Shown here one piece after another: positions 10,734-63,774 of a DNA stretch of 64,000 bases (position 1 is the first letter of the stretch; each line of letters begins with the position of its first letter). Origin of the DNA: Bacilli bacterium (GTDB lineage: Bacteria > Bacillota_I > Bacilli_A > RFN20 > CAG-826). A program made the position numbers and the translations under genes. The stretch is taken from the NCBI GenBank assembly GCA_024408505.1, contig JAKSUZ010000002.1, forward strand, positions 1,337 to 65,336. Reading direction: 5' to 3'. The notes below the pieces were generated by a model. The model was not told where the DNA came from, made no database searches, and saw only the letters and a list, made by a program, of their open reading frames with translations.

Positions 10734-11798
10734 TTATATTATAGCACTAACTTTGAGCGCGCTAGTAAAAGCCCACATCAAATTATAGCCGCCGCATAAT
10801 CCATCTTGATTAAGTGCTTCACCAATAATAAATACGTTTTTCTCGCGCTTACTATTAAAGGAGGAATCGACTTCATCAAGGCTTACGCCACCGATAGTGG
10901 CGACGCTATCATTTGCGTCATAGAACCCTTTAATATGAAACACTACTTGTTTAGGATTGCCTTTCTTCTTTAAATATCGGGCTAAATCATTCACAAAATA
11001 ATTTTCAAATTTTCCATTAAATTTAACCGAAGGAAGAAAATCCACTACTACTTCAGCGTTACTTAAATGGTTGCGTAAATAAATACTCGCAGCATGATAA
11101 ATGACTATTCCACTTAAACCATCTTTTTTAAATTGAAGTTCACCATCTTCTTCAAAATATGTTTTACCTTTACTAACTAATTTCACTCTTACTTCGCGAC
11201 GTAAACCATTGACTTCTTTAGTTGATTCAATAGTCTTAATTGGAAGTAATGCTGGGTGAAGTGGATAGACTTTATATCCATGTTTACTTAAATTAAGTAC
11301 AAAACTCGCATCTGCGCCTAATTTAGGTTGGCTACCTAAACCCGTAGCGATTACTAATTTATCAAATGGATAAGTTCCTTTATCGGTAATTAATTTGTTA
11401 TTGGTGTAATCAAGCGCTTGGCATTCACTGATGAATTTAACGCCTAACTTTTTCGCCTCACTTATTAAAGTATCCGTTAACATATTCGCAGATTCACTAT
11501 ATGGATAAATGTAACCTTCATGATTAATAGTAGCGATATTATGGTTATTAAAAAATTTAATTAAAGTATGAACATTAATTTCATTAAAAAGTTTTCTTGC
11601 TCTTTCTTCATTTAGATATTGACCTTTAATATCAAGAAGATTGCACATATTGCATTTTCCGTTTCCAGTTGCGCGTAATTTCTTTCCTAATTTATTATTA
11701 CGGTCAATAACTAAAACATCATAACGAGGATTCTTTTCTTTAATGGCTAGAGCGGATACTAGTCCGCTCGCACCACCACCAACAATAATGATTTTCAT
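10734..11798 (-). CDS. NAD(P)/FAD-dependent oxidoreductase, HI0933/YhiN/BaiN-like flavoprotein
   Basis: N-terminal dinucleotide fold IIIVGGGASGL, then LGKKLRATGNGKCNMCN and a C-terminal GGVSLDEV...IGEALNQDGLCGGYNL pattern. Confidence 0.75.
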   Translation of the reverse strand: MKIIIVGGGASGLVSALAIKEKNPRYDVLVIDRNNKLGKKLRATGNGKCNMCNLLDIKGQYLNEERARKLFNEINVHTLIKFFNNHNIATINHEGYIYPYSESANMLTDTLISEAKKLGVKFISECQALDYTNNKLITDKGTYPFDKLVIATGLGSQPKLGADASFVLNLSKHGYKVYPLHPALLPIKTIESTKEVNGLRREVRVKLVSKGKTYFEEDGELQFKKDGLSGIVIYHAASIYLRNHLSNAEVVVDFLPSVKFNGKFENYFVNDLARYLKKKGNPKQVVFHIKGFYDANDSVATIGGVSLDEVDSSFNSKREKNVFIIGEALNQDGLCGGYNLMWAFTSALKVSAII

Positions 11799-13711
11799 TA
11801 TTCGAGTTCAAATGCTCCTGTATATAGTTGATAATATACACCTTTTTGATCAATTAGTTGTTTATGAGTGCCACGTTCAATAATTTTTCCATGGTCAAGA
11901 ACCATAATTGCATCACTATTTTGAACAGTGCTTAAACGGTGAGCGATTACAAAAGTAGTTCTGCCTTCCATAATCTTATCCATACCTTTTTGAACTAATA
12001 ATTCAGTTCTAGTATCAATACTACTAGTTGCTTCATCTAAGATCATGACCGGAACATTCGCGACGGCGGCTCGAGCAATATTAATTAATTGTCTTTGACC
12101 TTGTGATAAGTTAGCACCATCGCCACTAAGCATCGTATCAAAGCCTTGTGGTAAGCGAGTAATAAAGTCATAAGCATTCGCTACCTTAGCGGCTTCAATT
12201 ACTTCTTCATCGGTCGCGGTTAATTTACCATAACGGATATTATCTTTAACGGTACCGGTAAATAAATTCGTATCTTGTAAAACGATTCCTAAGGATTTTC
12301 TTAATGAAGATTTTTTAATCTTATTAATATTGATTCCATCATAACGAACTTTACCATCTTCAATATCATAGAAGCGGTTAATTAAATTAGTAATTGTAGT
12401 TTTACCTGCTCCGGTTGCACCAACAAAGGCAATCTTTTCACCTGGACGAGCAGAAATCGAAATATCTTTTAATACTAAGTTAGGTGGATTATAAGCAAAG
12501 TTAACATGGGAAAGTAAAATATCACCTTCAAGTGGTACATATGTAACAGTGCCGTCAGCTTTATGTGGATGTTTCCACGCAAAGAATTTAGTTTCTTCAT
12601 TGGTCTCGTAGAAAGTATGATCATCACGATATTTAATATTTACTAAAGTAACATAACCATCATCTTTCTCGCTTTGTTCATCCATTAAATCGAAAGCGCG
12701 AGAAGCGCCAGCTGCGCCAAGGAAGATCATTGATAATTGTTGTGACAAGTTATTGACGTTATTAGTGAACATTCTTGCCATCATTAAGAATGAAACGATA
12801 GTGTAAACACCAACTGGTAAACCACTCATCGAAACATTAGGAACTTTAAAGACAATTAAGAGTGCACCAACAATGGCTAAAATAACATAGAGTAAGTTAC
12901 CAATGTTACCAATAACTGGCGCAAGCATATTACCAGCTGTGTTAGCAATAACACCATCATCTGCTAATTCTTTATTAAGTTTGGCGAAATCTTCTTGGCT
13001 CTTATCTTCATGCGAGAACACTTTAATAACTTTTAAACCATTGATCGCTTCTTCAATGTGGCCTTCAACAATACCTAACTTCTCTTGTTGTTTTCTAAAG
13101 TATTTACCACTTCTTGTACCAATCTTTTTGGCGGTGAAGAAAATGATTACTGTGGTAAATAACACAATGAGTGTTAAATATAGTGAATAATAAAGCATAA
13201 CGAATATTAAGGAAGTGACAATAACACCGGTTTGGAATACTCCAGGAAGTGATTCACGGACAATTTGACGAATAGTATCAATATCGTTTGTGTATATTGA
13301 CATAATATCGCCACGTTTGTGAGTGTCAAAATATCTAATCGGCAATGTTTCCATATGACTAAACATTGCTTTACGTGTTTCGTTCAAGAAGTCTTGTGTA
13401 ACAATCGCCATTGCTACGTTACATATCACTGCACTAATAATACCTTCAATGTAAATACCACCCATTAAACATAGGTAGAATATCATTTGTTGCCAGAATT
13501 CATCACCAGTAATAGTGCCTTTAGTGAACTCTTCAATTGTGGAAGTAATTGAACCAACTAAAACCGGTGAACAAATGGTACTAGCTGACATTGTGATAAT
13601 AAAGACTAAGCAAAGAATTACTCCAAGCTTATGCTTTTGCCACACCATTTTAATTAAACGTTTGATGGTGCCTTTCTTGGCTTTACCAACACTAGCTCGC
13701 ATGAGTGGCAT
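11798..13711 (-). CDS. ABC exporter, fused permease/ATPase (heterodimer subunit B)
   Basis: Six N-terminal TM helices. Walker A GATGAGKTT, signature LSQGQRQL, Walker B ILDEATS. The likely start is ATG 13711 after a GGAGGTG RBS (track start 13732). It overlaps the upstream partner. Confidence 0.9.
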   Translation of the reverse strand: MPLMRASVGKAKKGTIKRLIKMVWQKHKLGVILCLVFIITMSASTICSPVLVGSITSTIEEFTKGTITGDEFWQQMIFYLCLMGGIYIEGIISAVICNVAMAIVTQDFLNETRKAMFSHMETLPIRYFDTHKRGDIMSIYTNDIDTIRQIVRESLPGVFQTGVIVTSLIFVMLYYSLYLTLIVLFTTVIIFFTAKKIGTRSGKYFRKQQEKLGIVEGHIEEAINGLKVIKVFSHEDKSQEDFAKLNKELADDGVIANTAGNMLAPVIGNIGNLLYVILAIVGALLIVFKVPNVSMSGLPVGVYTIVSFLMMARMFTNNVNNLSQQLSMIFLGAAGASRAFDLMDEQSEKDDGYVTLVNIKYRDDHTFYETNEETKFFAWKHPHKADGTVTYVPLEGDILLSHVNFAYNPPNLVLKDISISARPGEKIAFVGATGAGKTTITNLINRFYDIEDGKVRYDGININKIKKSSLRKSLGIVLQDTNLFTGTVKDNIRYGKLTATDEEVIEAAKVANAYDFITRLPQGFDTMLSGDGANLSQGQRQLINIARAAVANVPVMILDEATSSIDTRTELLVQKGMDKIMEGRTTFVIAHRLSTVQNSDAIMVLDHGKIIERGTHKQLIDQKGVYYQLYTGAFELE

Positions 13712-15491
13712 GAGTGGCACCTCCGTTATCATCTTTTACGCGGTTTTGTGTGTGATAGACTTCTTGATAAATCTTATTTGTTTTTAAAAGTTCCTCATGG
13801 GTTCCAATTTGATCAATGTGACCATTATCCATAACAATAATTTTGGTCGCATCTTCCACTGAAGAAGTTCTTTGCGCAATAACAATCTTAGTAGTATTGG
13901 GTAAATCATCTTTTAAAGCATTACGAATCAACGCATCGGTTTTAGTATCAACCGCACTGGTCGAGTCATCTAAGATTAAAATCTTTGGTTTCTTAAGCAA
14001 GGCGCGTGCGATACATAAACGTTGGCGTTGACCACCGCTTACGTTTGTACCGCCTTGTTCAATATAAGTTTCGTATTTCTTTGGGAAACCTTGAACGAAT
14101 TCATCCGCTTGCGCAATCTTTGCCGCATTAACAATTTCTTCCTCGGTTGCATTTAAATCGCCCCAACGAAGGTTATCTGCGATGGTTCCTGAGAAAAGCA
14201 CATTCTTTTGTAACACTACTGCGACATTATCACGAAGTGTTCTTAAATCATATTGATGAACTGGATGGCCACCAACAATTAATTCGCCAGTAGTAATATC
14301 GTATAAACGAGAAATTAAACTAACTAAAGTAGATTTCCCACTTCCAGTTGAACCGATGATTCCAATAAAGTCACCCGATTTAATATCAAGATTAATTTCA
14401 TCTAGTGCATTTCTTTTAGCGCTCTTTGAATATTTAAAAGTAACTTTGTTAAATTTTACGGAACCATCTTTTAACTGCATGATTGGATCGGTTGGATTAT
14501 GAATTGTGGTTTCTTCACGTAAAACTTCTGCAATGCGTCTCACGCTTTCTAAGCTCATTGATAACATACCTAAAATGATGGTTACCATGAGCAATGCCAT
14601 TAAGATTTGTACACCATAGGTAAGTAACGCTGATAATTGACCCGGTCCTAAATCACCTTTACCACCATTTTGATAAATTAAATAAGCACCAAGTCCGCAA
14701 ACAAGCATATTCACGATGTGAATAGATAAGTTCATAATTGGAGAAGCAAAAGAAATAATGACTTCTGCTTTCTTAAATTCTTCACAAATAGCATCACTGG
14801 CTTTGCCCATCTTTTGAGTTTCATAATCTTCACGGACAAAGTTCTTTACCACACGAATGCCAGCTACGTTTTCTTGAATCGATTCATTTAATTTATCATA
14901 GCGTTTAAATACACGAGTAAAAATCTTGGTAGCTTTTCTTAACATAAATAAGAAACCAAGACAGACAAGTGGAATAACTCCAATGAAGATCCATGCCATT
15001 ACACCACCAAGCACAAAGCTTAAAACGGTAGCGAAGATAAACATTAACGGAGCGCGAACAATAATTCTAATGCCTAAGTTAAATGTCATAAATGTATTGT
15101 TGATATCAGTGGTTAAACGAGTAACTAAACTAGAAGTTGAGAAACGATCAATGTTAGCAAATGAGAATGATTCAATTTGTTTAAAAACATCCGCACGAAG
15201 GTTTTGCGCTAAACCAACCGAAGCTTTCGCTGCGGTCTTTGCGCCAAATATGCCACAAAGTAAACTAATAACAGCGATCGCTAAGAAAATTCCGGTGTAA
15301 ACTCCAATCTGGTTTAAATCAATTGAACCACCGGGTAAATCCGCCTTTTGAATAATCGTGACAAAAATACTCATAATGTAAGGAAGCGCACAATCGCACG
15401 CTGCTTCAACCATCATAAGTAAAGGAGTTAAAATCGCGTAGATTTTATACTCTCTTAAGCTCTGTAGAATCAATTTAAAATTTTTCAACAT
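13692..15491 (-). CDS. ABC exporter, fused permease/ATPase (heterodimer subunit A)
   Basis: TM domain plus Walker A GSTGSGKST, signature VSGGQRQRL, Walker B ILILDDSTSAVD. Confidence 0.9.
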   Translation of the reverse strand: MLKNFKLILQSLREYKIYAILTPLLMMVEAACDCALPYIMSIFVTIIQKADLPGGSIDLNQIGVYTGIFLAIAVISLLCGIFGAKTAAKASVGLAQNLRADVFKQIESFSFANIDRFSTSSLVTRLTTDINNTFMTFNLGIRIIVRAPLMFIFATVLSFVLGGVMAWIFIGVIPLVCLGFLFMLRKATKIFTRVFKRYDKLNESIQENVAGIRVVKNFVREDYETQKMGKASDAICEEFKKAEVIISFASPIMNLSIHIVNMLVCGLGAYLIYQNGGKGDLGPGQLSALLTYGVQILMALLMVTIILGMLSMSLESVRRIAEVLREETTIHNPTDPIMQLKDGSVKFNKVTFKYSKSAKRNALDEINLDIKSGDFIGIIGSTGSGKSTLVSLISRLYDITTGELIVGGHPVHQYDLRTLRDNVAVVLQKNVLFSGTIADNLRWGDLNATEEEIVNAAKIAQADEFVQGFPKKYETYIEQGGTNVSGGQRQRLCIARALLKKPKILILDDSTSAVDTKTDALIRNALKDDLPNTTKIVIAQRTSSVEDATKIIVMDNGHIDQIGTHEELLKTNKIYQEVYHTQNRVKDDNGGATHATHAS

Positions 15492-50226: not shown

Positions 50227-51156
50227 TTATTTCTTCTTTTTATATAAACGACGCATATCCATGGTCATTAAGCGATTAGTGAATTCACCAGGATTAAGTT
50301 CTTTCGTATTGTTATCATACATCATCATCTTGGCATCTAAGTCATCGATGAAGTTTACTAAGATTGCTTCTTTAGTCGCGCCTAATACGGGTGAACCATA
50401 TTCATATTTACCATGACTAGATAATACGCAGTGCTCAATATGAATAATCTTTTCGTTTTCTTCTAAATGATATTTACTAGCCACATTATTAATCAAATTA
50501 GTGGCAATCACTAAATGACCAAGTAAATGTCCTTCACTAGTATATTCAATTGGTAAGAGCCCACTTAATTCTTTAATCTTGCCTAAATCATGTAAAAATA
50601 CGCTGGCTAAGACGATATCGCTATCAATGTCACTATAATGCTTAATTAAGAAGCTAGCGACGTCTAGCATGCTTACGGTGTGATAAAGTAGTCCACTTGC
50701 GAAGGCATGGTGATTATTACTCGCCGCGGGATAAGTTAAAATCTTTTCTTTATAAGTCTTATATAAATCATCTACAACGGTTTTAATATCTTTATCTTTA
50801 ATATTATTAAGATGCGCTTCTAATTTCTTTTGGAGTGTGTCTTTTGGAATTGGAGAAGTTGGGATGTAATCATCTAACTTAGTCACTTCAACTGAACGAG
50901 CATCTCTAATTCTTAACTCTAATTTATCTTTATACGATGTAACATCAAAAGAGATGTTCACAAATTTACCTGGTTTAAATATTTCTTGATCATCACTAGT
51001 CGCGTCCCATTTCTTCGCACTCATGGTACCACTTTTATCTTGAAGTAAAATGGTTAAAAGCTTTTTGTTATTAACCGTAACACTCATGGTTGCGCTTTTA
51101 ACTAAATATATTTCTTGGTAGGCGTCGCCTTCTTTAAGCGTATTAAGAAAAATCAT
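50227..51156 (-). CDS. yhaM: 3'-5' exoribonuclease YhaM (OB-fold plus HD domain)
   Basis: N-terminal OB-fold and an HD domain (FLHDLGK, GHLxxH). Confidence 0.8.
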   Translation of the reverse strand: MIFLNTLKEGDAYQEIYLVKSATMSVTVNNKKLLTILLQDKSGTMSAKKWDATSDDQEIFKPGKFVNISFDVTSYKDKLELRIRDARSVEVTKLDDYIPTSPIPKDTLQKKLEAHLNNIKDKDIKTVVDDLYKTYKEKILTYPAASNNHHAFASGLLYHTVSMLDVASFLIKHYSDIDSDIVLASVFLHDLGKIKELSGLLPIEYTSEGHLLGHLVIATNLINNVASKYHLEENEKIIHIEHCVLSSHGKYEYGSPVLGATKEAILVNFIDDLDAKMMMYDNNTKELNPGEFTNRLMTMDMRRLYKKKK

Positions 51157-57900: not shown

Positions 57901-59205
57901 TTAATAGTTATCTTTTTTAATCATATAGATGTAAGTGGCGATTGTAGCTAGAAAATCAAGTAACATTCCACCGCCAAACATTAAGGCAATTCCATCAAGA
58001 GTCGGAATAAAGATTCCTGCTTTCCATAAAGAAAACATAATTACATAATAAGTTCCGTTAGTGACAATAGTTTGAATTAGCATTAAATAAGTCTTACCAC
58101 GCCCATAAATAATTCCATCTAATAAATAGTTATAGATAAACGCAATATAGAAACCGGTTTGAATTAAAACAATGTGGAAAATTGTTTCATAAGCATCAGA
58201 ATTTAAAACATATTGAATAAATGGTTTCCATGCAGGAATTGTAATTAGCCAAAGGATTGTAAAGAGCGTTGATATAACTATATAACCAAGAAATTTATCT
58301 TTTACATTTTTTCTGTTCTCAGCAGTTTCTTTTTTAATTACATCATAAAGCGCGGTGGCTGGTAATAATAACCAAGTCCAAATAAAATTGTTTGCCACCC
58401 AGTATGCGCCTTGTTCACTAATTGTGTTTACTAGACGAAGTACCATTAACATATAAGCAAGATTGCGGATAAATGATTCTAAACCTGATAATAAACCTAT
58501 CTTCCCGTATTCTTTTAGCCATTTAAAATCTAATTTATCTTTAGTAAAAACATTAATGCCTTCTTTCTTAAGCATAATGAAAGATGAAACCACCGAAATT
58601 ATTGACACAGCAATATTTGAAACCGCAATCCCATCCACTCCCATATTCGCTGAGCAAGGAAGCTTAGAAATTAAGAATGTATCTAACAATATAGATAAAA
58701 CTGTTTGAACCACTAATAAGATGTACATATACTTATCCTTATTAATAGTTACCAGTAAAACCGTAATAAATTTAGAAAGAATAGAAATAGTGGATGCAAC
58801 TGTTTCTAAACGTATATAATTAACAGTCTCAGTTAAAGTGCTTGGATCGCTTGCCATAAATTTACATAACGGCTCAGCGCAACTAATGATGATAATTGAT
58901 AATAGTAAATAAGCACCGCCACTTATTAATAATCCTGTTCTAGTTTTATTTGCTAATTCTTTTTTATTGTTAAACGATTTGCCTAACAAATAGAAAAGAG
59001 GCAAGATAAACGCTTCTTCAATTACTTCGTAAATGATGTTAACCCATGCGAGTTGAGAAGCAATGTCAACTCCGCTGCTACTTGGCAAATCACCTAAAAA
59101 GAATATTCTTAAAGTTTTATATAAAGCAGGTATTAATAGGGTTGTGGCTAGAACTAACCACAACCTCCAATTAAAGGTCTTAATGGAATTAATTATTTTC
59201 TTCAT
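57901..59205 (-). CDS. MATE/MOP-superfamily 12-TM membrane protein
   Basis: About 12 TM helices in two halves with MATE-like loops (GVDGIAVSN). Its ATG overlaps the stop of the upstream AAA protease gene (ATGA). Confidence 0.6.
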   Translation of the reverse strand: MKKIINSIKTFNWRLWLVLATTLLIPALYKTLRIFFLGDLPSSSGVDIASQLAWVNIIYEVIEEAFILPLFYLLGKSFNNKKELANKTRTGLLISGGAYLLLSIIIISCAEPLCKFMASDPSTLTETVNYIRLETVASTISILSKFITVLLVTINKDKYMYILLVVQTVLSILLDTFLISKLPCSANMGVDGIAVSNIAVSIISVVSSFIMLKKEGINVFTKDKLDFKWLKEYGKIGLLSGLESFIRNLAYMLMVLRLVNTISEQGAYWVANNFIWTWLLLPATALYDVIKKETAENRKNVKDKFLGYIVISTLFTILWLITIPAWKPFIQYVLNSDAYETIFHIVLIQTGFYIAFIYNYLLDGIIYGRGKTYLMLIQTIVTNGTYYVIMFSLWKAGIFIPTLDGIALMFGGGMLLDFLATIATYIYMIKKDNY

Positions 59206-60530
59206 AATTGTTCACCTTTATTATACTTCTTAATTAACTCTTCCATTTCAGTCTGATTTAATTTAACTTTTGACTTTAATTCTTTGAAAATATATTCCGC
59301 TAATTTTTTATTTTTTAGTAATATTTTTTTGTCTTCTTCGTATAAAGTTTGTAACTTATCAGCCATAAACTTTTCGATTTTAGCTGATTTAATTTCTGAA
59401 TCAGCATTGTTTCTTGAGGAGTTCATCATAAATTCGATTGAATTTATTTTTTCGCTTATAAGATCAAATCCAAACGCACCTATATTCATAACGCTAATAA
59501 TTAAGGCCTTGGCGTTACTCAAATCAGTCATACCGCCTAAACCAAGATCTTTAATATAAGTTTCTTCGGCTGCCATACCAGCAAGTTCTATCATAACTTT
59601 ATGATCCAATGTATTCTTAGTAACCTCAACACGTCTAGTTGGAAAATCATCAGTTCGCATAAATCCCTTGACATTTCCATATCTTTCAACTGATAATGCG
59701 CCAATTGTTTTGTTAAGAACATAGTTTAGAATGAAATGGCCTATTTCGTGATAGCAAGTTATGTCTTCTGGGCCATTCAAATCTACCTTACGAATTTCTT
59801 GAAAGAACACCACTGGAATAATTCTTTCAAAATCAGCGAGCGTAATTTTTGTTTTCTTTTTTGAAGCACAATCAATAATAGTTTCGTTAACTAGTGTTTT
59901 AATATCGGCGCCAGAGAAACCAGATGATTTATTAGCTAACACTTTTGGATCTATTGATTTAGTAATATCATTTTTAACCAAATATAGTTTGAAAATTGCT
60001 TCGCGAGATTTCAAATCGGGCATTGGCATTGTAATTCTTTTATCCATTCTTCCGCTTCTAATTAACGCAGGCGGTAATTTACCACGAGCGTTTGTGGTAG
60101 CGATGACCATAATCCCACTAGTTGAGGAAATACCATCAATTTCCGTTAAAAGAATTTTTAATGTCTTTCTTGAATAGTCAGAATAGAATTCTTCTGTCAT
60201 TACTAATTCATCAAGTTCATCAATAAAAATAATCGATGGTGCGTTTTCACGGGCTTTTTTAAATACATCTTTTATTGATTTAATAGTAGCAGTTTCAGTT
60301 TCACACTCATTACTTTCAAATTCATAAAACGGAACATTTGATTCATTGGCAATTGCTTTAGCAAGCATTGTTTTGCCAACGCCTGGTCTTCCAGAGAGAA
60401 TTAGTCCTTTCGGAATATAGGCACCAATTTTTTCATATTTTTTATGATTTTTGAGTACTTCAATAATTTTTTCGGCTTCTTGTTTCTCTTCATCGTAGCC
60501 AGCGATGTCTTTTAAATAAATTTTTTCCAT
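59202..60530 (-). CDS. Soluble FtsH-like AAA+ ATPase fused to an M41-type metalloprotease domain, with no TM anchor
   Basis: Walker A GRPGVGKT, Walker B IIFIDELD, second region of homology ATTNARGKLPPALIRSGRMD, then the zinc motif HEIGH. No hydrophobic N-terminal segments. Confidence 0.75.
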   Translation of the reverse strand: MEKIYLKDIAGYDEEKQEAEKIIEVLKNHKKYEKIGAYIPKGLILSGRPGVGKTMLAKAIANESNVPFYEFESNECETETATIKSIKDVFKKARENAPSIIFIDELDELVMTEEFYSDYSRKTLKILLTEIDGISSTSGIMVIATTNARGKLPPALIRSGRMDKRITMPMPDLKSREAIFKLYLVKNDITKSIDPKVLANKSSGFSGADIKTLVNETIIDCASKKKTKITLADFERIIPVVFFQEIRKVDLNGPEDITCYHEIGHFILNYVLNKTIGALSVERYGNVKGFMRTDDFPTRRVEVTKNTLDHKVMIELAGMAAEETYIKDLGLGGMTDLSNAKALIISVMNIGAFGFDLISEKINSIEFMMNSSRNNADSEIKSAKIEKFMADKLQTLYEEDKKILLKNKKLAEYIFKELKSKVKLNQTEMEELIKKYNKGEQL

Positions 60531-60583
60531 AAGTTTTCACCTCTGAAAATAATATTATTTATAAATAAAGATTAATGTTGTTT

Positions 60584-60602
60584 TGTGATAAATGTCATCA
60601 CA
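60584..60602. promoter_or_regulatory. Operator site 3, TGTGA-N9-TCACA, upstream of the FtsH-like gene
   Basis: TGTGATAAATGTCATCACA. Read on the minus strand, the site and its 3' flank closely match the site at 62630 and its flank (TGTGATGACAT.T.TCACAAAACAACATT). Confidence 0.6.
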
Positions 60603-60605
60603 CGC

Positions 60606-62234
60606 CTAGTCAAATTGTGAGATTTTTTCGTTTTTAAGATTGACTACCATAGCATCCCACATCGCCTTTTTCTCGCTAACAAACATATCGTACATATGCA
60701 AAGCGTCATCTGGAAAATTTACTTGCCCGGGTTTGTTTTTAAAATATTCTTTGCCGCCGTGAAAATGTATTTGCAAAAATAGAAACATGTAGTAACCGAT
60801 TTCTTTTGGGGCGTTATCCCATACTCTAGTGCTAGCATTGAATGCATAGCCACTACTATGCCCAATGTCTAAACTAATTTGATAAAGATTGTATATGCTA
60901 ACGCCAAAAGCAGAATTGTTAAGAGCTACACTAATATAGTCCTTAACAACCTGGCGATAGTATCCGTGCATTTCTTCGCTAGGATAAATAAAATATAAAG
61001 AATCTTGTTTTACGCCTTTTATAAAATCTTCTAATTTAAGGTTTGGAAATTTTTCTTTATAGTATTCGTTATATAATTTGGATAAGGGTTCATCGACTTT
61101 TGAGAATAAGGATGAATTAGCGTGAGAATGCCGAGAATAGAAATCAAATAACTGATAAGTGGTTGAAAGACGATAAGCTCTTTTCATGAAAGCATATTCC
61201 TTTTGAGTTTGGACTCCTGATACTTTCATAAACACGCCTAAGTTTTCAATAAAAATTTTAAATTTAATTACTGCTTGCTCATGAAAGCCAAATCCTCTAC
61301 AAATTTCGATATCCCGAATTAAAGCGATTAACGAACCGATTTGGCGATAATAAAAATAATCTACCGAATTATCCAAATAATGAGTTGTAGCATAATTCAA
61401 TCGCCCTAACACTTTTGCTTCCATTAACGCTCCACGAACATTTTGGTCAATTAATTTATTTTGTTGATTTTCATCAAACGAATTCATCTCGTTATCTGCT
61501 AGATATCCTCTTTCGTTCAAATACTCTAAACCGTATAGATATATCATTGTTATAACATCATGTCTATGTTTGGATATAGGTTCCAATATGTTTTCTTCAA
61601 ACGCAGCAGGATGTAATAAAATACTCAGAAATTGATAACAATCACCAAACGACGAGCCTAAATAATGATTGATCATCTTTAACGGGGAGACTGAGTGGAA
61701 AGGATATTTTTCGCTATTTATGTCGTAATTATGTATTTCTTTTTGTAGGAAAAATAAAGAATCCCGAGAAGCTGATTTTAAAAATTTAGTCTTACAGCCA
61801 AAAAACTTAGACCATTTTTGATAAAAACCCTCTAAATCCTTTTGACGATTTACTAATATGTCATTCGGCGGAAAATTTTCCATCACCCATTTAAATACAA
61901 CCGATTCATTCGAATATTCAATAGGCAAATATAATTCACGATACAAATCATAATTATGCTTTTTTAAATCTCCACACTCATGACATTTTAGAATTGCTAT
62001 CGCTTCCAACACATTTCTGGCATTTAATTCAATTCCTGGTGAGCCTATGCCACATATATGATCATTTAAAAAGATTGCCATCATATTGGTAACTAAATCT
62101 AGTTTTATACCATATTGAAAATAATCCTCGTTTGAAACGCTTGTATCATTAAATCGACTACGACAATCCTTATCGAGTTTAGACAGCGATTTATAGATAA
62201 TGTTTTTATTTTTTAAAGCTTCCTGAACATTCAT
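60606..62234 (-). CDS. 542-aa cytoplasmic protein of unknown function
   Basis: Long uninterrupted ORF that looks largely helical, with no TM segment or motif I recognise. A TATAAT lies 8 nt before the ATG and there is no SD sequence, so the mRNA may be leaderless. Confidence 0.6.
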   Translation of the reverse strand: MNVQEALKNKNIIYKSLSKLDKDCRSRFNDTSVSNEDYFQYGIKLDLVTNMMAIFLNDHICGIGSPGIELNARNVLEAIAILKCHECGDLKKHNYDLYRELYLPIEYSNESVVFKWVMENFPPNDILVNRQKDLEGFYQKWSKFFGCKTKFLKSASRDSLFFLQKEIHNYDINSEKYPFHSVSPLKMINHYLGSSFGDCYQFLSILLHPAAFEENILEPISKHRHDVITMIYLYGLEYLNERGYLADNEMNSFDENQQNKLIDQNVRGALMEAKVLGRLNYATTHYLDNSVDYFYYRQIGSLIALIRDIEICRGFGFHEQAVIKFKIFIENLGVFMKVSGVQTQKEYAFMKRAYRLSTTYQLFDFYSRHSHANSSLFSKVDEPLSKLYNEYYKEKFPNLKLEDFIKGVKQDSLYFIYPSEEMHGYYRQVVKDYISVALNNSAFGVSIYNLYQISLDIGHSSGYAFNASTRVWDNAPKEIGYYMFLFLQIHFHGGKEYFKNKPGQVNFPDDALHMYDMFVSEKKAMWDAMVVNLKNEKISQFD

Positions 62235-62274
62235 ACATTTATATTATATATAATCAATTCAATTTTAGTGATTT

Positions 62275-62293
62275 TGTGATGCACTACATCACA
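62275..62293. promoter_or_regulatory. Operator site 1, TGTGA-N9-TCACA, in the divergent promoter region
   Basis: TGTGATGCACTACATCACA (7-bp arms TGTGATG/CATCACA), between the 542-aa gene and the HTH gene. Confidence 0.6.
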
Positions 62294-62397
62294 TTCAATG
62301 TTTTTAGTTGTGTTTTTCTTCTTAATTGATATAATGAGCATGAAACTAGGCAACCGATGCCTCTTGTAGAGCGATCTACGCGGAGGAGGTAATCGAT

Positions 62398-62613
62398 ATG
62401 AATAGTTTCTCTTCCTATGACGCGATGATTGCGTTGTATGAAAAAATTCGGGACCGGATCAAAGATCGGCCTGATGTTACACAAGCGCTTCTTGCAAAAG
62501 AAGTAGGTGTCACACGTGAACACCTTAATAGGATGCTTAGCAATAAATATCCTATGAAAGTGGAAACATTGATCCACCTTATGATCCTTCTCGATATGAA
62601 TCGCCTGCTCTAA
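62398..62613 (+). CDS. XRE-family helix-turn-helix transcriptional regulator
   Basis: GGAGGAGG RBS. TQALLAKEVGVTREHLNRMLSNK is a typical HTH_3 helix-turn-helix. 71 aa. The gene is visibly more G+C-rich than its flanks. Confidence 0.75.
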   Translation: MNSFSSYDAMIALYEKIRDRIKDRPDVTQALLAKEVGVTREHLNRMLSNKYPMKVETLIHLMILLDMNRLL

Positions 62614-62630
62614 GAGCAGGCTTTTCTTTT
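62603..62630 (+). terminator. Rho-independent terminator of the HTH gene
   Basis: GCCTGCTC-TAA-GAGCAGGC followed by TTTTCTTTT. The stop codon forms the loop. Confidence 0.8.
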
Positions 62631-62648
62631 GTGATGACATATGTCACA
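62630..62648. promoter_or_regulatory. Operator site 2, TGTGA-N9-TCACA, upstream of the 329-aa gene
   Basis: TGTGATGACATATGTCACA, containing the perfect 12-nt palindrome TGACATATGTCA. Confidence 0.6.
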
Positions 62649-62687
62649 AAACAACATTTAACATATAAAACCGATATTATAAAATTA

Positions 62688-62742
62688 GCTGTAACGTTCT
62701 TACAGCAAAATCCTCCATAAGGGCAAGGCACAGACCTTGCCC
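62688..62742 (+). promoter_or_regulatory. Structured G+C-rich 5' leader with two hairpins
   Basis: GCTGTAA-CGTTC-TTACAGC (62688-62706) and GGGCAAGG-CACAGA-CCTTGCCC (62721-62742) flank AATCCTCCAT, which is complementary to SD-type sequences. The element lies 40 nt before the AAAGGAG RBS of the 62785 gene. Confidence 0.45.
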
Positions 62743-62784
62743 CTAACCTATATATAGAGGTATAAATATACAAAGGAGAATATT

Positions 62785-63774
62785 ATGAACGAAAAAGAAA
62801 ATATGCAATTCAAAAAATTTGTTGAAGAATTGCACAAATTGGCCATTGCTAATAAAGACAAGGAAGTGCCAGACGTAGTAAGTAATAGAGATGCTCTCAT
62901 TGCCTATTACATCGTTTCACATATTGATATTATTGACGAAGGCGATGCTTTATTGTTTTTGATTGCCAACAACTTAATTAACACTTATATCAAGCAACCC
63001 GAGGCATTAACTTGCTTTAAATACGTATTTAAAAATTCATTATTTATCATTCTAAATAATTTAAAGAAGCGTGATTTTCCGAATATAAAAGTGAATTATA
63101 TTGCCAAAGAATTAAATAATAATAATTTAATCCTGTTTACTATCTATGATATGCAATTTTCCTATCACTCTATCCCAAAACGTATGGAGTGGTGCATTAC
63201 TGATAAATATAAGAGCGACACTGTCTTCGCAGGCGTAAGAAATAAAAACTGTATTAATGAGTTATTTGCTCGAGTTCTAAAAAATAAAATCAAATACAAC
63301 AACATTACTATTAGAAAAAAACCTTTATTAAAAAATGCCTATGATTTAGCGGATGATTATTTAAGTGGAAAGCTAAAGAACAAGGATATTAAATACATTT
63401 GTCGTCTTCCTGATTATTGCTACACAGAACATCAAGATCAACTGGGCATTAAGGTTAATCAAATTAATCAATCAAGCCGAAAAAGCGGAATCAGCTATAT
63501 CTTACAAAGTAAATGGGGTGAATTTTATCGATCTGCTTTGGACAAACTTGACTTAGAGGAATCGAAAGGTAAATTATGTACAATAAGCGCCACGCTAAAG
63601 CAAAACGAAGCGGATTTAAATGCGGCAATTGATATTATAAAAAAGAATAATTATGTTCCAGTCGATAAAATAACTCCGTCAAGTTTTATTATAGTTAAAG
63701 ATGAAGAAGATAAGGATCGATTAATATCAAAACTCAAACATCCATATAATGGTGAATTTATTAAGCTTAAATAA
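62785..63774 (+). CDS. 329-aa cytoplasmic protein of unknown function
   Basis: AAAGGAG RBS. Long ORF with no TM segment or motif I recognise. Confidence 0.6.
   Translation: MNEKENMQFKKFVEELHKLAIANKDKEVPDVVSNRDALIAYYIVSHIDIIDEGDALLFLIANNLINTYIKQPEALTCFKYVFKNSLFIILNNLKKRDFPNIKVNYIAKELNNNNLILFTIYDMQFSYHSIPKRMEWCITDKYKSDTVFAGVRNKNCINELFARVLKNKIKYNNITIRKKPLLKNAYDLADDYLSGKLKNKDIKYICRLPDYCYTEHQDQLGIKVNQINQSSRKSGISYILQSKWGEFYRSALDKLDLEESKGKLCTISATLKQNEADLNAAIDIIKKNNYVPVDKITPSSFIIVKDEEDKDRLISKLKHPYNGEFIKLK

Follow-up and report, generated by a model that had tools for sequence, protein, structure and literature searches.

The window analysed here, a stretch of 64,000 nucleotides (nt) from a Bacilli bacterium of the order RFN20 (assembly GCA_024408505.1, contig JAKSUZ010000002.1, positions 1,337 to 65,336), encodes a 442-amino-acid (aa) protein that belongs to a distinct and conserved clade of soluble AAA+/M41 proteases derived from FtsH. 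To our knowledge FtsH is portrayed as a quality-control protease that is obligately anchored in the membrane and threads its substrates. The window protease departs from this definition in three respects, lacking the anchor and the pore-1 motif and scoring below the cut-off of the curated model. The gene lies in a small island with genes for a MATE family membrane protein, a 71-aa regulator and two further proteins of 542 and 329 aa, and one of three copies of a palindrome precedes it. We consider the chances slightly better than even that these genes form an accessory cassette of the conflict type, self-contained and kept repressed, in which a soluble M41 ring acts on specific clients and the MATE protein is an exchangeable, co-expressed membrane function.

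The absence of the two N-terminal transmembrane (TM) helices of FtsH, pointed out in an initial annotation of this DNA, was confirmed. All TM counts come from a hydropathy scan (Kyte-Doolittle), in which none of the 19-residue windows of the protease reached 1.6, so no TM segment is predicted. Alignment to the FtsH model TIGR01241 (598 positions) covered model positions 157-597, meaning that the protein begins where the cytosolic part of FtsH begins, and its score of 285.6 bits was below the equivalog cut-off of 600. The canonical FtsH of the same genome (contig C52) reached 767.5 bits with this model and has hydrophobic segments at residues 18-36 and 199-217. An in-frame extension encoding TM helices was looked for upstream and none was found; a TGA lies three codons 5' of the protease ATG, and since the frame is open for just two codons before the ATG no N-terminal extension is possible. 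The positions and lengths of the open reading frames (ORFs) of the protease and the MATE protein (442 and 434 aa) were exactly those first given. The initial annotation had also credited the protease with the full FtsH catalytic set, and this holds in part: Walker A (GRPGVGKT), Walker B (IIFIDELD, residues 100-107), RSGRMD (residues 158-163) and HEIGH are all present, but both pore loops, which had been passed over, are non-canonical. The Pfam domains AAA (PF00004, 119.8 bits), AAA_lid_3 (31.7 bits) and Peptidase_M41 (PF01434, 45.0 bits against a cut-off of 29.9) all scored above their cut-offs.

Relatives were searched for among 5.8 billion proteins. Those among the 120 matches listed are 272-498 aa long (mostly ~440-470), show 43-85% identity and are nearly all unnamed. 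Motifs were compared in an alignment of 116 family members with seven canonical FtsH proteins of the same order. The Walker A residues K53 and T54, the Walker B residues D104 and E105 and the second arginine R161 are present in all 116 members, as are H261, E262, H265 and D336, while the sensor-1 asparagine N147, the first arginine R158 and E322 are found in 115 (D336 is the aligned acidic residue that corresponds to the third zinc ligand; E322 and D336 are named by the residue numbering of Escherichia coli and Thermotoga maritima FtsH). The pore-1 motif of an aromatic residue, a hydrophobic residue and glycine (MFVG in FtsH) was found in 0 of the 116 aligned members. Where canonical FtsH has SGSDFVEMFVGVGAGRV, the family shows a 2-residue deletion and the consensus F-E-S/A-N/D-E-S-E-T/N-E-E/A-E/A-T-I-K-S, represented in the window protease by E-S-E-T-E-E-E-T-I-K, and the mean net charge of the segment is -4.4 versus -1 in canonical FtsH. 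Pore-2 is likewise rewritten, with a conserved F/Y-x-S-D-Y-S-R-K in place of the canonical GRQRGAG.GGG.DEREQ and a shortening by 4 residues in the window protein and in about two-thirds of the members.

The ratio of non-synonymous to synonymous substitution rates (dN/dS) was 0.09 in two pairs of relatives, those in which dS was not saturated. Together with the intact catalytic residues, this indicates that the ATPase and protease chemistry has been held by selection and that the grip-and-thread elements of FtsH have not; reading the gene as a decaying pseudogene was rejected for the same reasons. A maximum-likelihood tree, a check that the initial annotation had suggested for anchorless paralogues, unites the TM-less proteins in one clade (support 100/100) and keeps them separate from canonical FtsH as well as from a two-TM paralogue. 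A full-text literature search found no description of this soluble FtsH-like family. Scanning contigs with the family alignment returned only canonical or distant AAA proteins, the patterns being too generic.

The family is patchily distributed. Among 301 genomes of the order nearly all contain a canonical FtsH (frames of 650-850 aa, ~210-240 bits), and the TM-less copy was found in ~19 of them (6%), often on short contigs, a few genomes having two or three. The neighbourhoods of the relatives contain genes for DarT, Macro and NADAR proteins, type I restriction-modification systems, SLFN-type and AAA_11/12 helicases, DUF4238, Z1, DUF4420, HATPase_c_3 and NERD proteins and an integrase. In its own genome the island has a WYL-DUF2779 nuclease pair and a ParE/Phd pair within 12 kb to its right.

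A comparison with the same-genus genome G317 sets the limits of the island. This genome is syntenic with the window from 45062 to the start of the first ABC exporter gene, ABC1 (57840), and keeps the left flank, ABC1 (75% identity) and its partner ABC2 (73%), but all five genes of the island (protease, MATE, 542-aa, regulator and 329-aa) are absent from it. The island is thus delimited to 57901-63774 (5.9 kb), and the ABC exporters are native neighbours, not part of the same unit. The coordinates of the island features are collected in Table 1.

Table 1 Features of the protease island (window coordinates; in the strand column, a dot marks the palindromes)
Feature	Position	Strand	Basis or remark
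MATE family membrane protein gene, 434 aa	57901..59205	-	NF045539 match, hydrophobic segments
ATGA stop/start overlap, protease to MATE	59202..59205	-	Sequence
FtsH-like soluble AAA+/M41 protease gene, 442 aa	59202..60530	-	First gene of operator-controlled unit; ORF
HEIGH zinc-binding motif, residues 261-265	59736..59750	-	Sequence motif
Acidic segment in place of the FtsH pore-1 loop (canonical SGSDFVEMFVGVGAGRV), codons 72-85	60276..60317	-	Alignment
Walker A GRPGVGKT, residues 47-54	60369..60392	-	Sequence motif
Putative operator copy 3 (TGTGATAAATGTCATCACA), between 542-aa and protease genes	60584..60602	.	Palindrome TGTGA-N9-TCACA
542-aa all-helical protein ("P500")	60606..62234	-	AlphaFold2 model
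Putative operator copy 2, divergent promoter region between 542-aa and regulator genes	62275..62293	.	Palindrome
71-aa XRE-type helix-turn-helix regulator, presumed repressor	62398..62613	+	Weak helix-turn-helix matches
Putative operator copy 1, ahead of 329-aa gene	62630..62648	.	Palindrome
329-aa protein, N-domain and ~100-aa C-terminal domain	62785..63774	+	C-terminal similarity to exonuclease partners

Some observations on the surroundings can be added. In genome G015, locus L057 (4963-10365) contains orthologues of ABC1 and ABC2 (41% and 46% identity), and directly after them comes an FtsH paralogue of 603 aa that has a short loop and two TM helices, so that this genome has a second, membrane-anchored FtsH inside an ABC-exporter operon; the paralogue is of the canonical type and falls on the canonical branch of the tree, and the ABC pair was rejected as a member of the unit here too. 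A second ABC exporter of the window's own genome (contig C45, 1602-3329) is 52% identical to ABC2. ARAGORN predicted a tRNA-Asn with anticodon ATT at 50681-50756 of the window, inside a 309-aa ORF (50227-51156), probably a false positive. Among the relatives, locus L003 has a DNA ADP-ribosylation cluster (DarT, two Macro proteins and NADAR; 11096-15114) downstream of the protease, and an ADP-ribosylglycohydrolase fragment is located directly 5' of the protease in L006 and L141. A protein of ~930 aa is encoded just 5' of the exonuclease-protease pair described below in L003 (4039-6861), L006 (3221-6007) and L141 (1153-3951); it matches phrog_8308 (E 4.5e-82) and weakly an "RNA-dependent RNA polymerase" PHROG, and may be a phage-type polymerase-like protein.

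The palindrome TGTGA-N9-TCACA occurs three times in the window, where 0.03 would be expected, and the exact pattern has four sites in the whole 1.23-Mb genome. Sites of the TGTGAT...ATCACA type are the three island copies only, which confines the putative regulon to the island. The pattern was also found directly 5' of the protease gene in four other distinct loci (L008/L009, L013, L047 and L140), and the position of copy 2 is likewise occupied in L134. From this repetition and conservation at the promoters they would control, we consider the palindromes putative operators. The copy at 60584, between the 542-aa and protease genes, agrees with the initial proposal that the protease is under such an operator.

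The presumed repressor gave two sub-threshold matches, HTH_3 at 20.7 bits (cut-off 23) and HTH_Crp_2 at 23.4 (cut-off 27), and it matched PHROG transcriptional regulator families at E 2e-5 to 1e-3. At least six loci (L008, L010, L013, L047 and L140 included) have a member of this small regulator family next to the protease gene, and others were found in L134 and, beside a lone MATE gene, in L075. A strong terminator-like hairpin at 62603-62621 (8 pairs, 6 of them GC, followed by a T-run) overlaps the 3' end of the regulator gene; since it lies 9 nt ahead of operator copy 1, the 329-aa gene is probably transcribed from a separate promoter under operator control. The 542-aa protein had no match in Pfam, NCBIfam, PADLOC or PHROG. 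Its AlphaFold2 model is all-alpha with a predicted template modelling score of 0.73, and a fold search with this model gave no significant match. Homologues with 23-34% identity are located 5' of the protease in L008, L010 and L013, and profile matches were obtained in L139, upstream of the protease, and in L134, beside the regulator.

The composition of the cassette was established by clustering and profile-searching the ORFs of 26 loci, to which L139, L140 and L141 were added with the same profiles; the counts given here refer to 16 loci, the near relatives, in which the protease shares at least 43% identity with that of the window. It consists of a small XRE regulator, the TGTGA-N9-TCACA palindrome, the protease, an optional MATE and a DEDDh exonuclease with a C-terminal domain. 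This last family, of ~320 aa, adjoins the protease in 13 of the 16 near relatives and combines an N-terminal DEDDh exonuclease, with visible DxE, D and HxxxD motifs, and a conserved C-terminal domain of ~100 aa; RNase_T (PF00929) was recovered in the partners of L003, L006 and L010 at 27-30 bits (cut-off 24). In the MATE-bearing half of the near relatives (8/16) the MATE gene directly follows the protease and stands between it and the exonuclease gene. The gaps from protease to MATE are -4, +10, -17, -1, -8, -4 and -29 nt (negative values are overlaps), those from MATE to exonuclease 0, -1, -4, -4, -34 and -1 nt, and where there is no MATE the gap from protease to exonuclease is -4 nt in 4 of 4 cases, some of the predicted starts being possibly over-extended.

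The window represents a variant in which the exonuclease position after the MATE gene is empty and the counterpart is the divergent 329-aa protein, under the same operator. This protein resembles the DEDDh-exonuclease partners in its C-terminal part alone (BLAST matches of 68-114 aa); it has no N-terminal RNase_T-type domain with DxE...D...HxxxD and so falls outside the DEDDh partner family ("P320"). Residues 241-329 of its AlphaFold2 model have block-mean predicted local distance difference test values of 86-96 and follow a beta-alpha-beta-beta-alpha-beta order. The best fold matches of the model were BRCT domains, at a level that is not significant (probability 0.77, E 0.27), and one relative gave a sub-threshold Pfam BRCT match. 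A homologue, P0122, is found in the same arrangement with the regulator and the 542-aa gene. The partner proteins evolve fast and their domains are shuffled. This shuffling around a constant tail suggests that the tail ties the partners to the module, perhaps as the element through which the protease docks with or recognises them.

The N-domain of the 329-aa protein (residues 1-217) is widespread and uncharacterised, and is found mostly as stand-alone proteins of ~190-220 aa; in P0126 it is joined C-terminally to an RNase_T exonuclease, and it is N-terminal in proteins of 908-946 aa. Homology of this domain to the ~940-aa proteins of L003 and L006 was considered and rejected, the 943-aa match P0156 being dissimilar to them. 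Locus L132 (3331-11126) encodes a homologue that is 52% identical to the 329-aa protein, together with a 559-aa classic AAA ATPase that has a KWYG pore loop and no M41 domain, a 589-aa HTH_3 protein, a REase-ARP/PDDEXK protein and a DUF4238 protein.

Two arrangements have parts of the cassette without an FtsH-like gene. In L142-L144 an exonuclease-plus-tail protein, P0149, is found in an island with genes for a large CI-like helix-turn-helix protein, an HNH protein, a MazG-like protein, an SLFN-type helicase and AbiEii. In L075 (7182-9299, genome G246) the small regulator and the TGTGA-N9-TCACA palindrome are located directly 5' of a type-B MATE gene, an arrangement that looks like a MATE-alone version of the cassette.

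The MATE protein of the window matched NF045539 (MATE_efflux1, "MATE family Na+-driven efflux transporter") at 521 bits (cut-off 350) over model positions 1-410 of 411, and Pfam MatE at 29.7 bits; by hydropathy alone it has 6 strong and ~12-14 relaxed hydrophobic segments. It is 68-70% identical to the MATE proteins encoded after the protease in L008, L010 and L047. Its ATG (59205-59203) overlaps the TGA of the protease (59204-59202), so that the ATGA reported at the junction is correct, and a Shine-Dalgarno sequence, AAGGTGA, lies within the protease gene 6 nt 5' of this ATG (59218-59212). The initial annotation took the overlap as a sign of stoichiometric co-production, with the MATE protein possibly as a surrogate membrane anchor or substrate gate, that is, a membrane-bound complex of fixed ratio with the protease. 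We think this explanation unlikely. The overlap and the internal Shine-Dalgarno sequence fit it, but overlaps of 4 nt join 7 of the 49 same-strand neighbour pairs of the window, which makes the ATGA by itself weak evidence for a stoichiometric complex, and the same overlap joins the protease to the exonuclease in relatives.

The tight junctions to a MATE gene placed immediately 3' in eight near relatives are also in favour of an anchor, and the adjacency is more frequent than expected: in the 301 genomes a MATE gene is next to the protease in 5 of the ~19 protease-bearing genomes (~24 protease loci), far above our estimate for random gene placement, which is well below 0.01. The expected conservation of the adjacency is partly upheld, recurring in 8 of the 16 near relatives and missing from the other eight. 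MATE_efflux1-like genes are present in 49 of the 301 genomes and only five directly follow a protease, ~90% of those in the order being elsewhere; 19 of the 20 other MATE loci inspected had unrelated neighbours, for example helix-turn-helix regulators and APH-like kinases. No protein fusing the protease with a MATE was seen.

The trees speak on both sides of the anchor explanation. Protease-linked MATE proteins fall into two subclades ~33% identical to each other, each with unlinked members, and close relatives of the MATE also stand alone. The window protease is nearest (59-61% identity) to proteases linked with a type-B MATE and its own MATE is type A. At least three changes in adjacency are required on either the protease or the MATE tree, and proteases with and without a MATE are interleaved. 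The persistence of the adjacency over two MATE subtypes and incongruent trees counts in favour of an anchor; however, the two subtypes and the disagreement of the trees also mean repeated exchange or acquisition of the MATE, and MATE-less proteases are scattered among the linked ones. Protease and MATE are thus genuinely associated, through an old link or one that has formed again and again, and each also occurs without the other. As a general rule the surrogate anchor is unsupported.

A second explanation, which we hold to be improbable, is an efflux operon responding to xenobiotic or envelope stress, in which the XRE repressor would control the MATE, read-through would reach the ABC exporters and the protease would serve the stress response or degrade a regulator. 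The MATE and the two ABC exporter genes share a strand, nothing resembling a terminator separates MATE from ABC1, the L075 arrangement has the same regulator and palindrome directly before a MATE in the absence of the protease, and some MATE genes of the family do adjoin APH-like kinases and helix-turn-helix regulators. This has to be set against the conservation of the ABC pair without the island in G317 and the restriction of the operator to the island. Moreover, the most constant partner of the protease is the exonuclease-type protein, not a transporter, and defence genes, not efflux genes, abound in the neighbourhoods. A feedback switch, in which the protease would degrade the XRE repressor or another DNA-binding protein and lock the cassette on, by analogy with repressor/anti-repressor protease pairs of mobile elements, is very improbable. 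In its favour, at least six loci have the small regulator and its palindrome beside the protease gene, and basic clients that bind DNA could suit the acidic pore segment. In the other near-relative loci, however, the regulator was undetected beside the protease gene, and a protease whose own gene is under the operator could not start the induction.

The reading as a repressed accessory cassette would work as follows. The cassette would be an inducible module of the conflict type, whether anti-phage, anti-mobile-element or element-borne. In its soluble hexamer, ATP would serve to gate an active M41 chamber or to position it, instead of driving threading in the FtsH manner. The substrates would be specific and probably basic, and DNA-binding proteins are possible given the acidic pore. 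The partner that shares its tail domain, either the exonuclease or the 329-aa protein, is a likely client or adaptor and the prime candidate. The MATE would serve export or an optional membrane recruitment and would not be a required anchor of the protease.

Several points weigh against this reading. Some of the 16 near-relative loci are near-identical elements, so the independent sample is smaller than their number. The exonuclease-type partner is also found without the protease, as is the MATE, and some of the co-location of the cassette genes may reflect shared hot spots. By its sequence the MATE is an ordinary efflux-type transporter. The loss of the pore-1 motif is deduced from an alignment, and a mechanism changed by the altered pore loops is likewise inferred from sequence. 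In PADLOC-DB 2.0 the protease showed only generic AAA similarity (IetA, TRIP13), and the MATE, 542-aa, 329-aa and 71-aa proteins had no match. Collections of phages, plasmids and viral contigs contained nothing closer than canonical FtsH (three motif matches in viral contigs were spurious), so that the case for mobility comes from patchiness and context alone.

A bolder version, to which we give only tentative credence, is that the XRE-controlled string is a previously unrecognised protease-based system of immunity or element maintenance in gut Bacilli, in which a non-threading ring would spend ATP on switching its M41 chamber, acting on a partner that it recognises by the shared tail domain, and the version with a MATE would couple this activity to the membrane for export or recruitment. 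What gives the family its interest is that a sizeable group of proteins under purifying selection keeps the ATPase and zinc chemistry and drops the anchor and the threading loop, pointing to a different use of an AAA+ protease. Its fixed genetic partners (the small repressor, the tail-domain exonuclease and often a MATE) and its location in defence-rich variable regions lead to the hypothesis of a new protease-based accessory system, whose hosts would be poorly studied gut bacteria with small genomes. For genes of this soluble family the annotation "FtsH" is misleading.

Among known systems, the closest in sequence is FtsH/HflB itself (MEROPS M41, TIGR01241; structures 2CE7 from T. maritima and 2DHR from Thermus). 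As in the window protease, one chain combines the AAA+ module, the lid and the M41 domain, with Walker A and B, sensor-1, the arginine fingers, HExxH and the aligned aspartate in common, and the cytosolic FtsH construct 7ZBH aligns with it end to end (residues 3-433, E 1.7e-62). Unlike FtsH, the window protease has no TM helices, periplasmic domain or linker, it has an acidic stretch in the place of the pore-1 FVG and a rewritten pore-2 with a 4-residue deletion, and its family is patchy and accessory, coexisting with a canonical FtsH instead of being universal. IetAS, formed by the AAA+ ATPase IetA and the serine protease IetS, is likewise a partnership of a classic-clade AAA+ protein and a protease whose setting is accessory or defensive, and IetA models were the best PADLOC matches of the window protease (90.8 bits). 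However, the similarity is restricted to the AAA module (NF042959 score of 86 against a cut-off of 510), and the protease is a fused M41 metalloprotease here and a separate S8 enzyme there.

Two further systems are comparable. ImmR/ImmA of ICEBs1 also brings together, on a unit that moves horizontally, a small XRE-type repressor, palindromic operators and a zinc metalloprotease. The protease there, ImmA, is a small HExxH enzyme of the M78 type that works independently of ATP and has no AAA+ motor, whereas the window protease has one. In lexA-dinF of E. coli a MATE gene lies within a repressor-controlled stress operon, so that in both cases a MATE is under a dedicated repressor together with functions of DNA metabolism; the repressor family and the operator are different, and in the window the MATE belongs to an accessory island that includes a protease.

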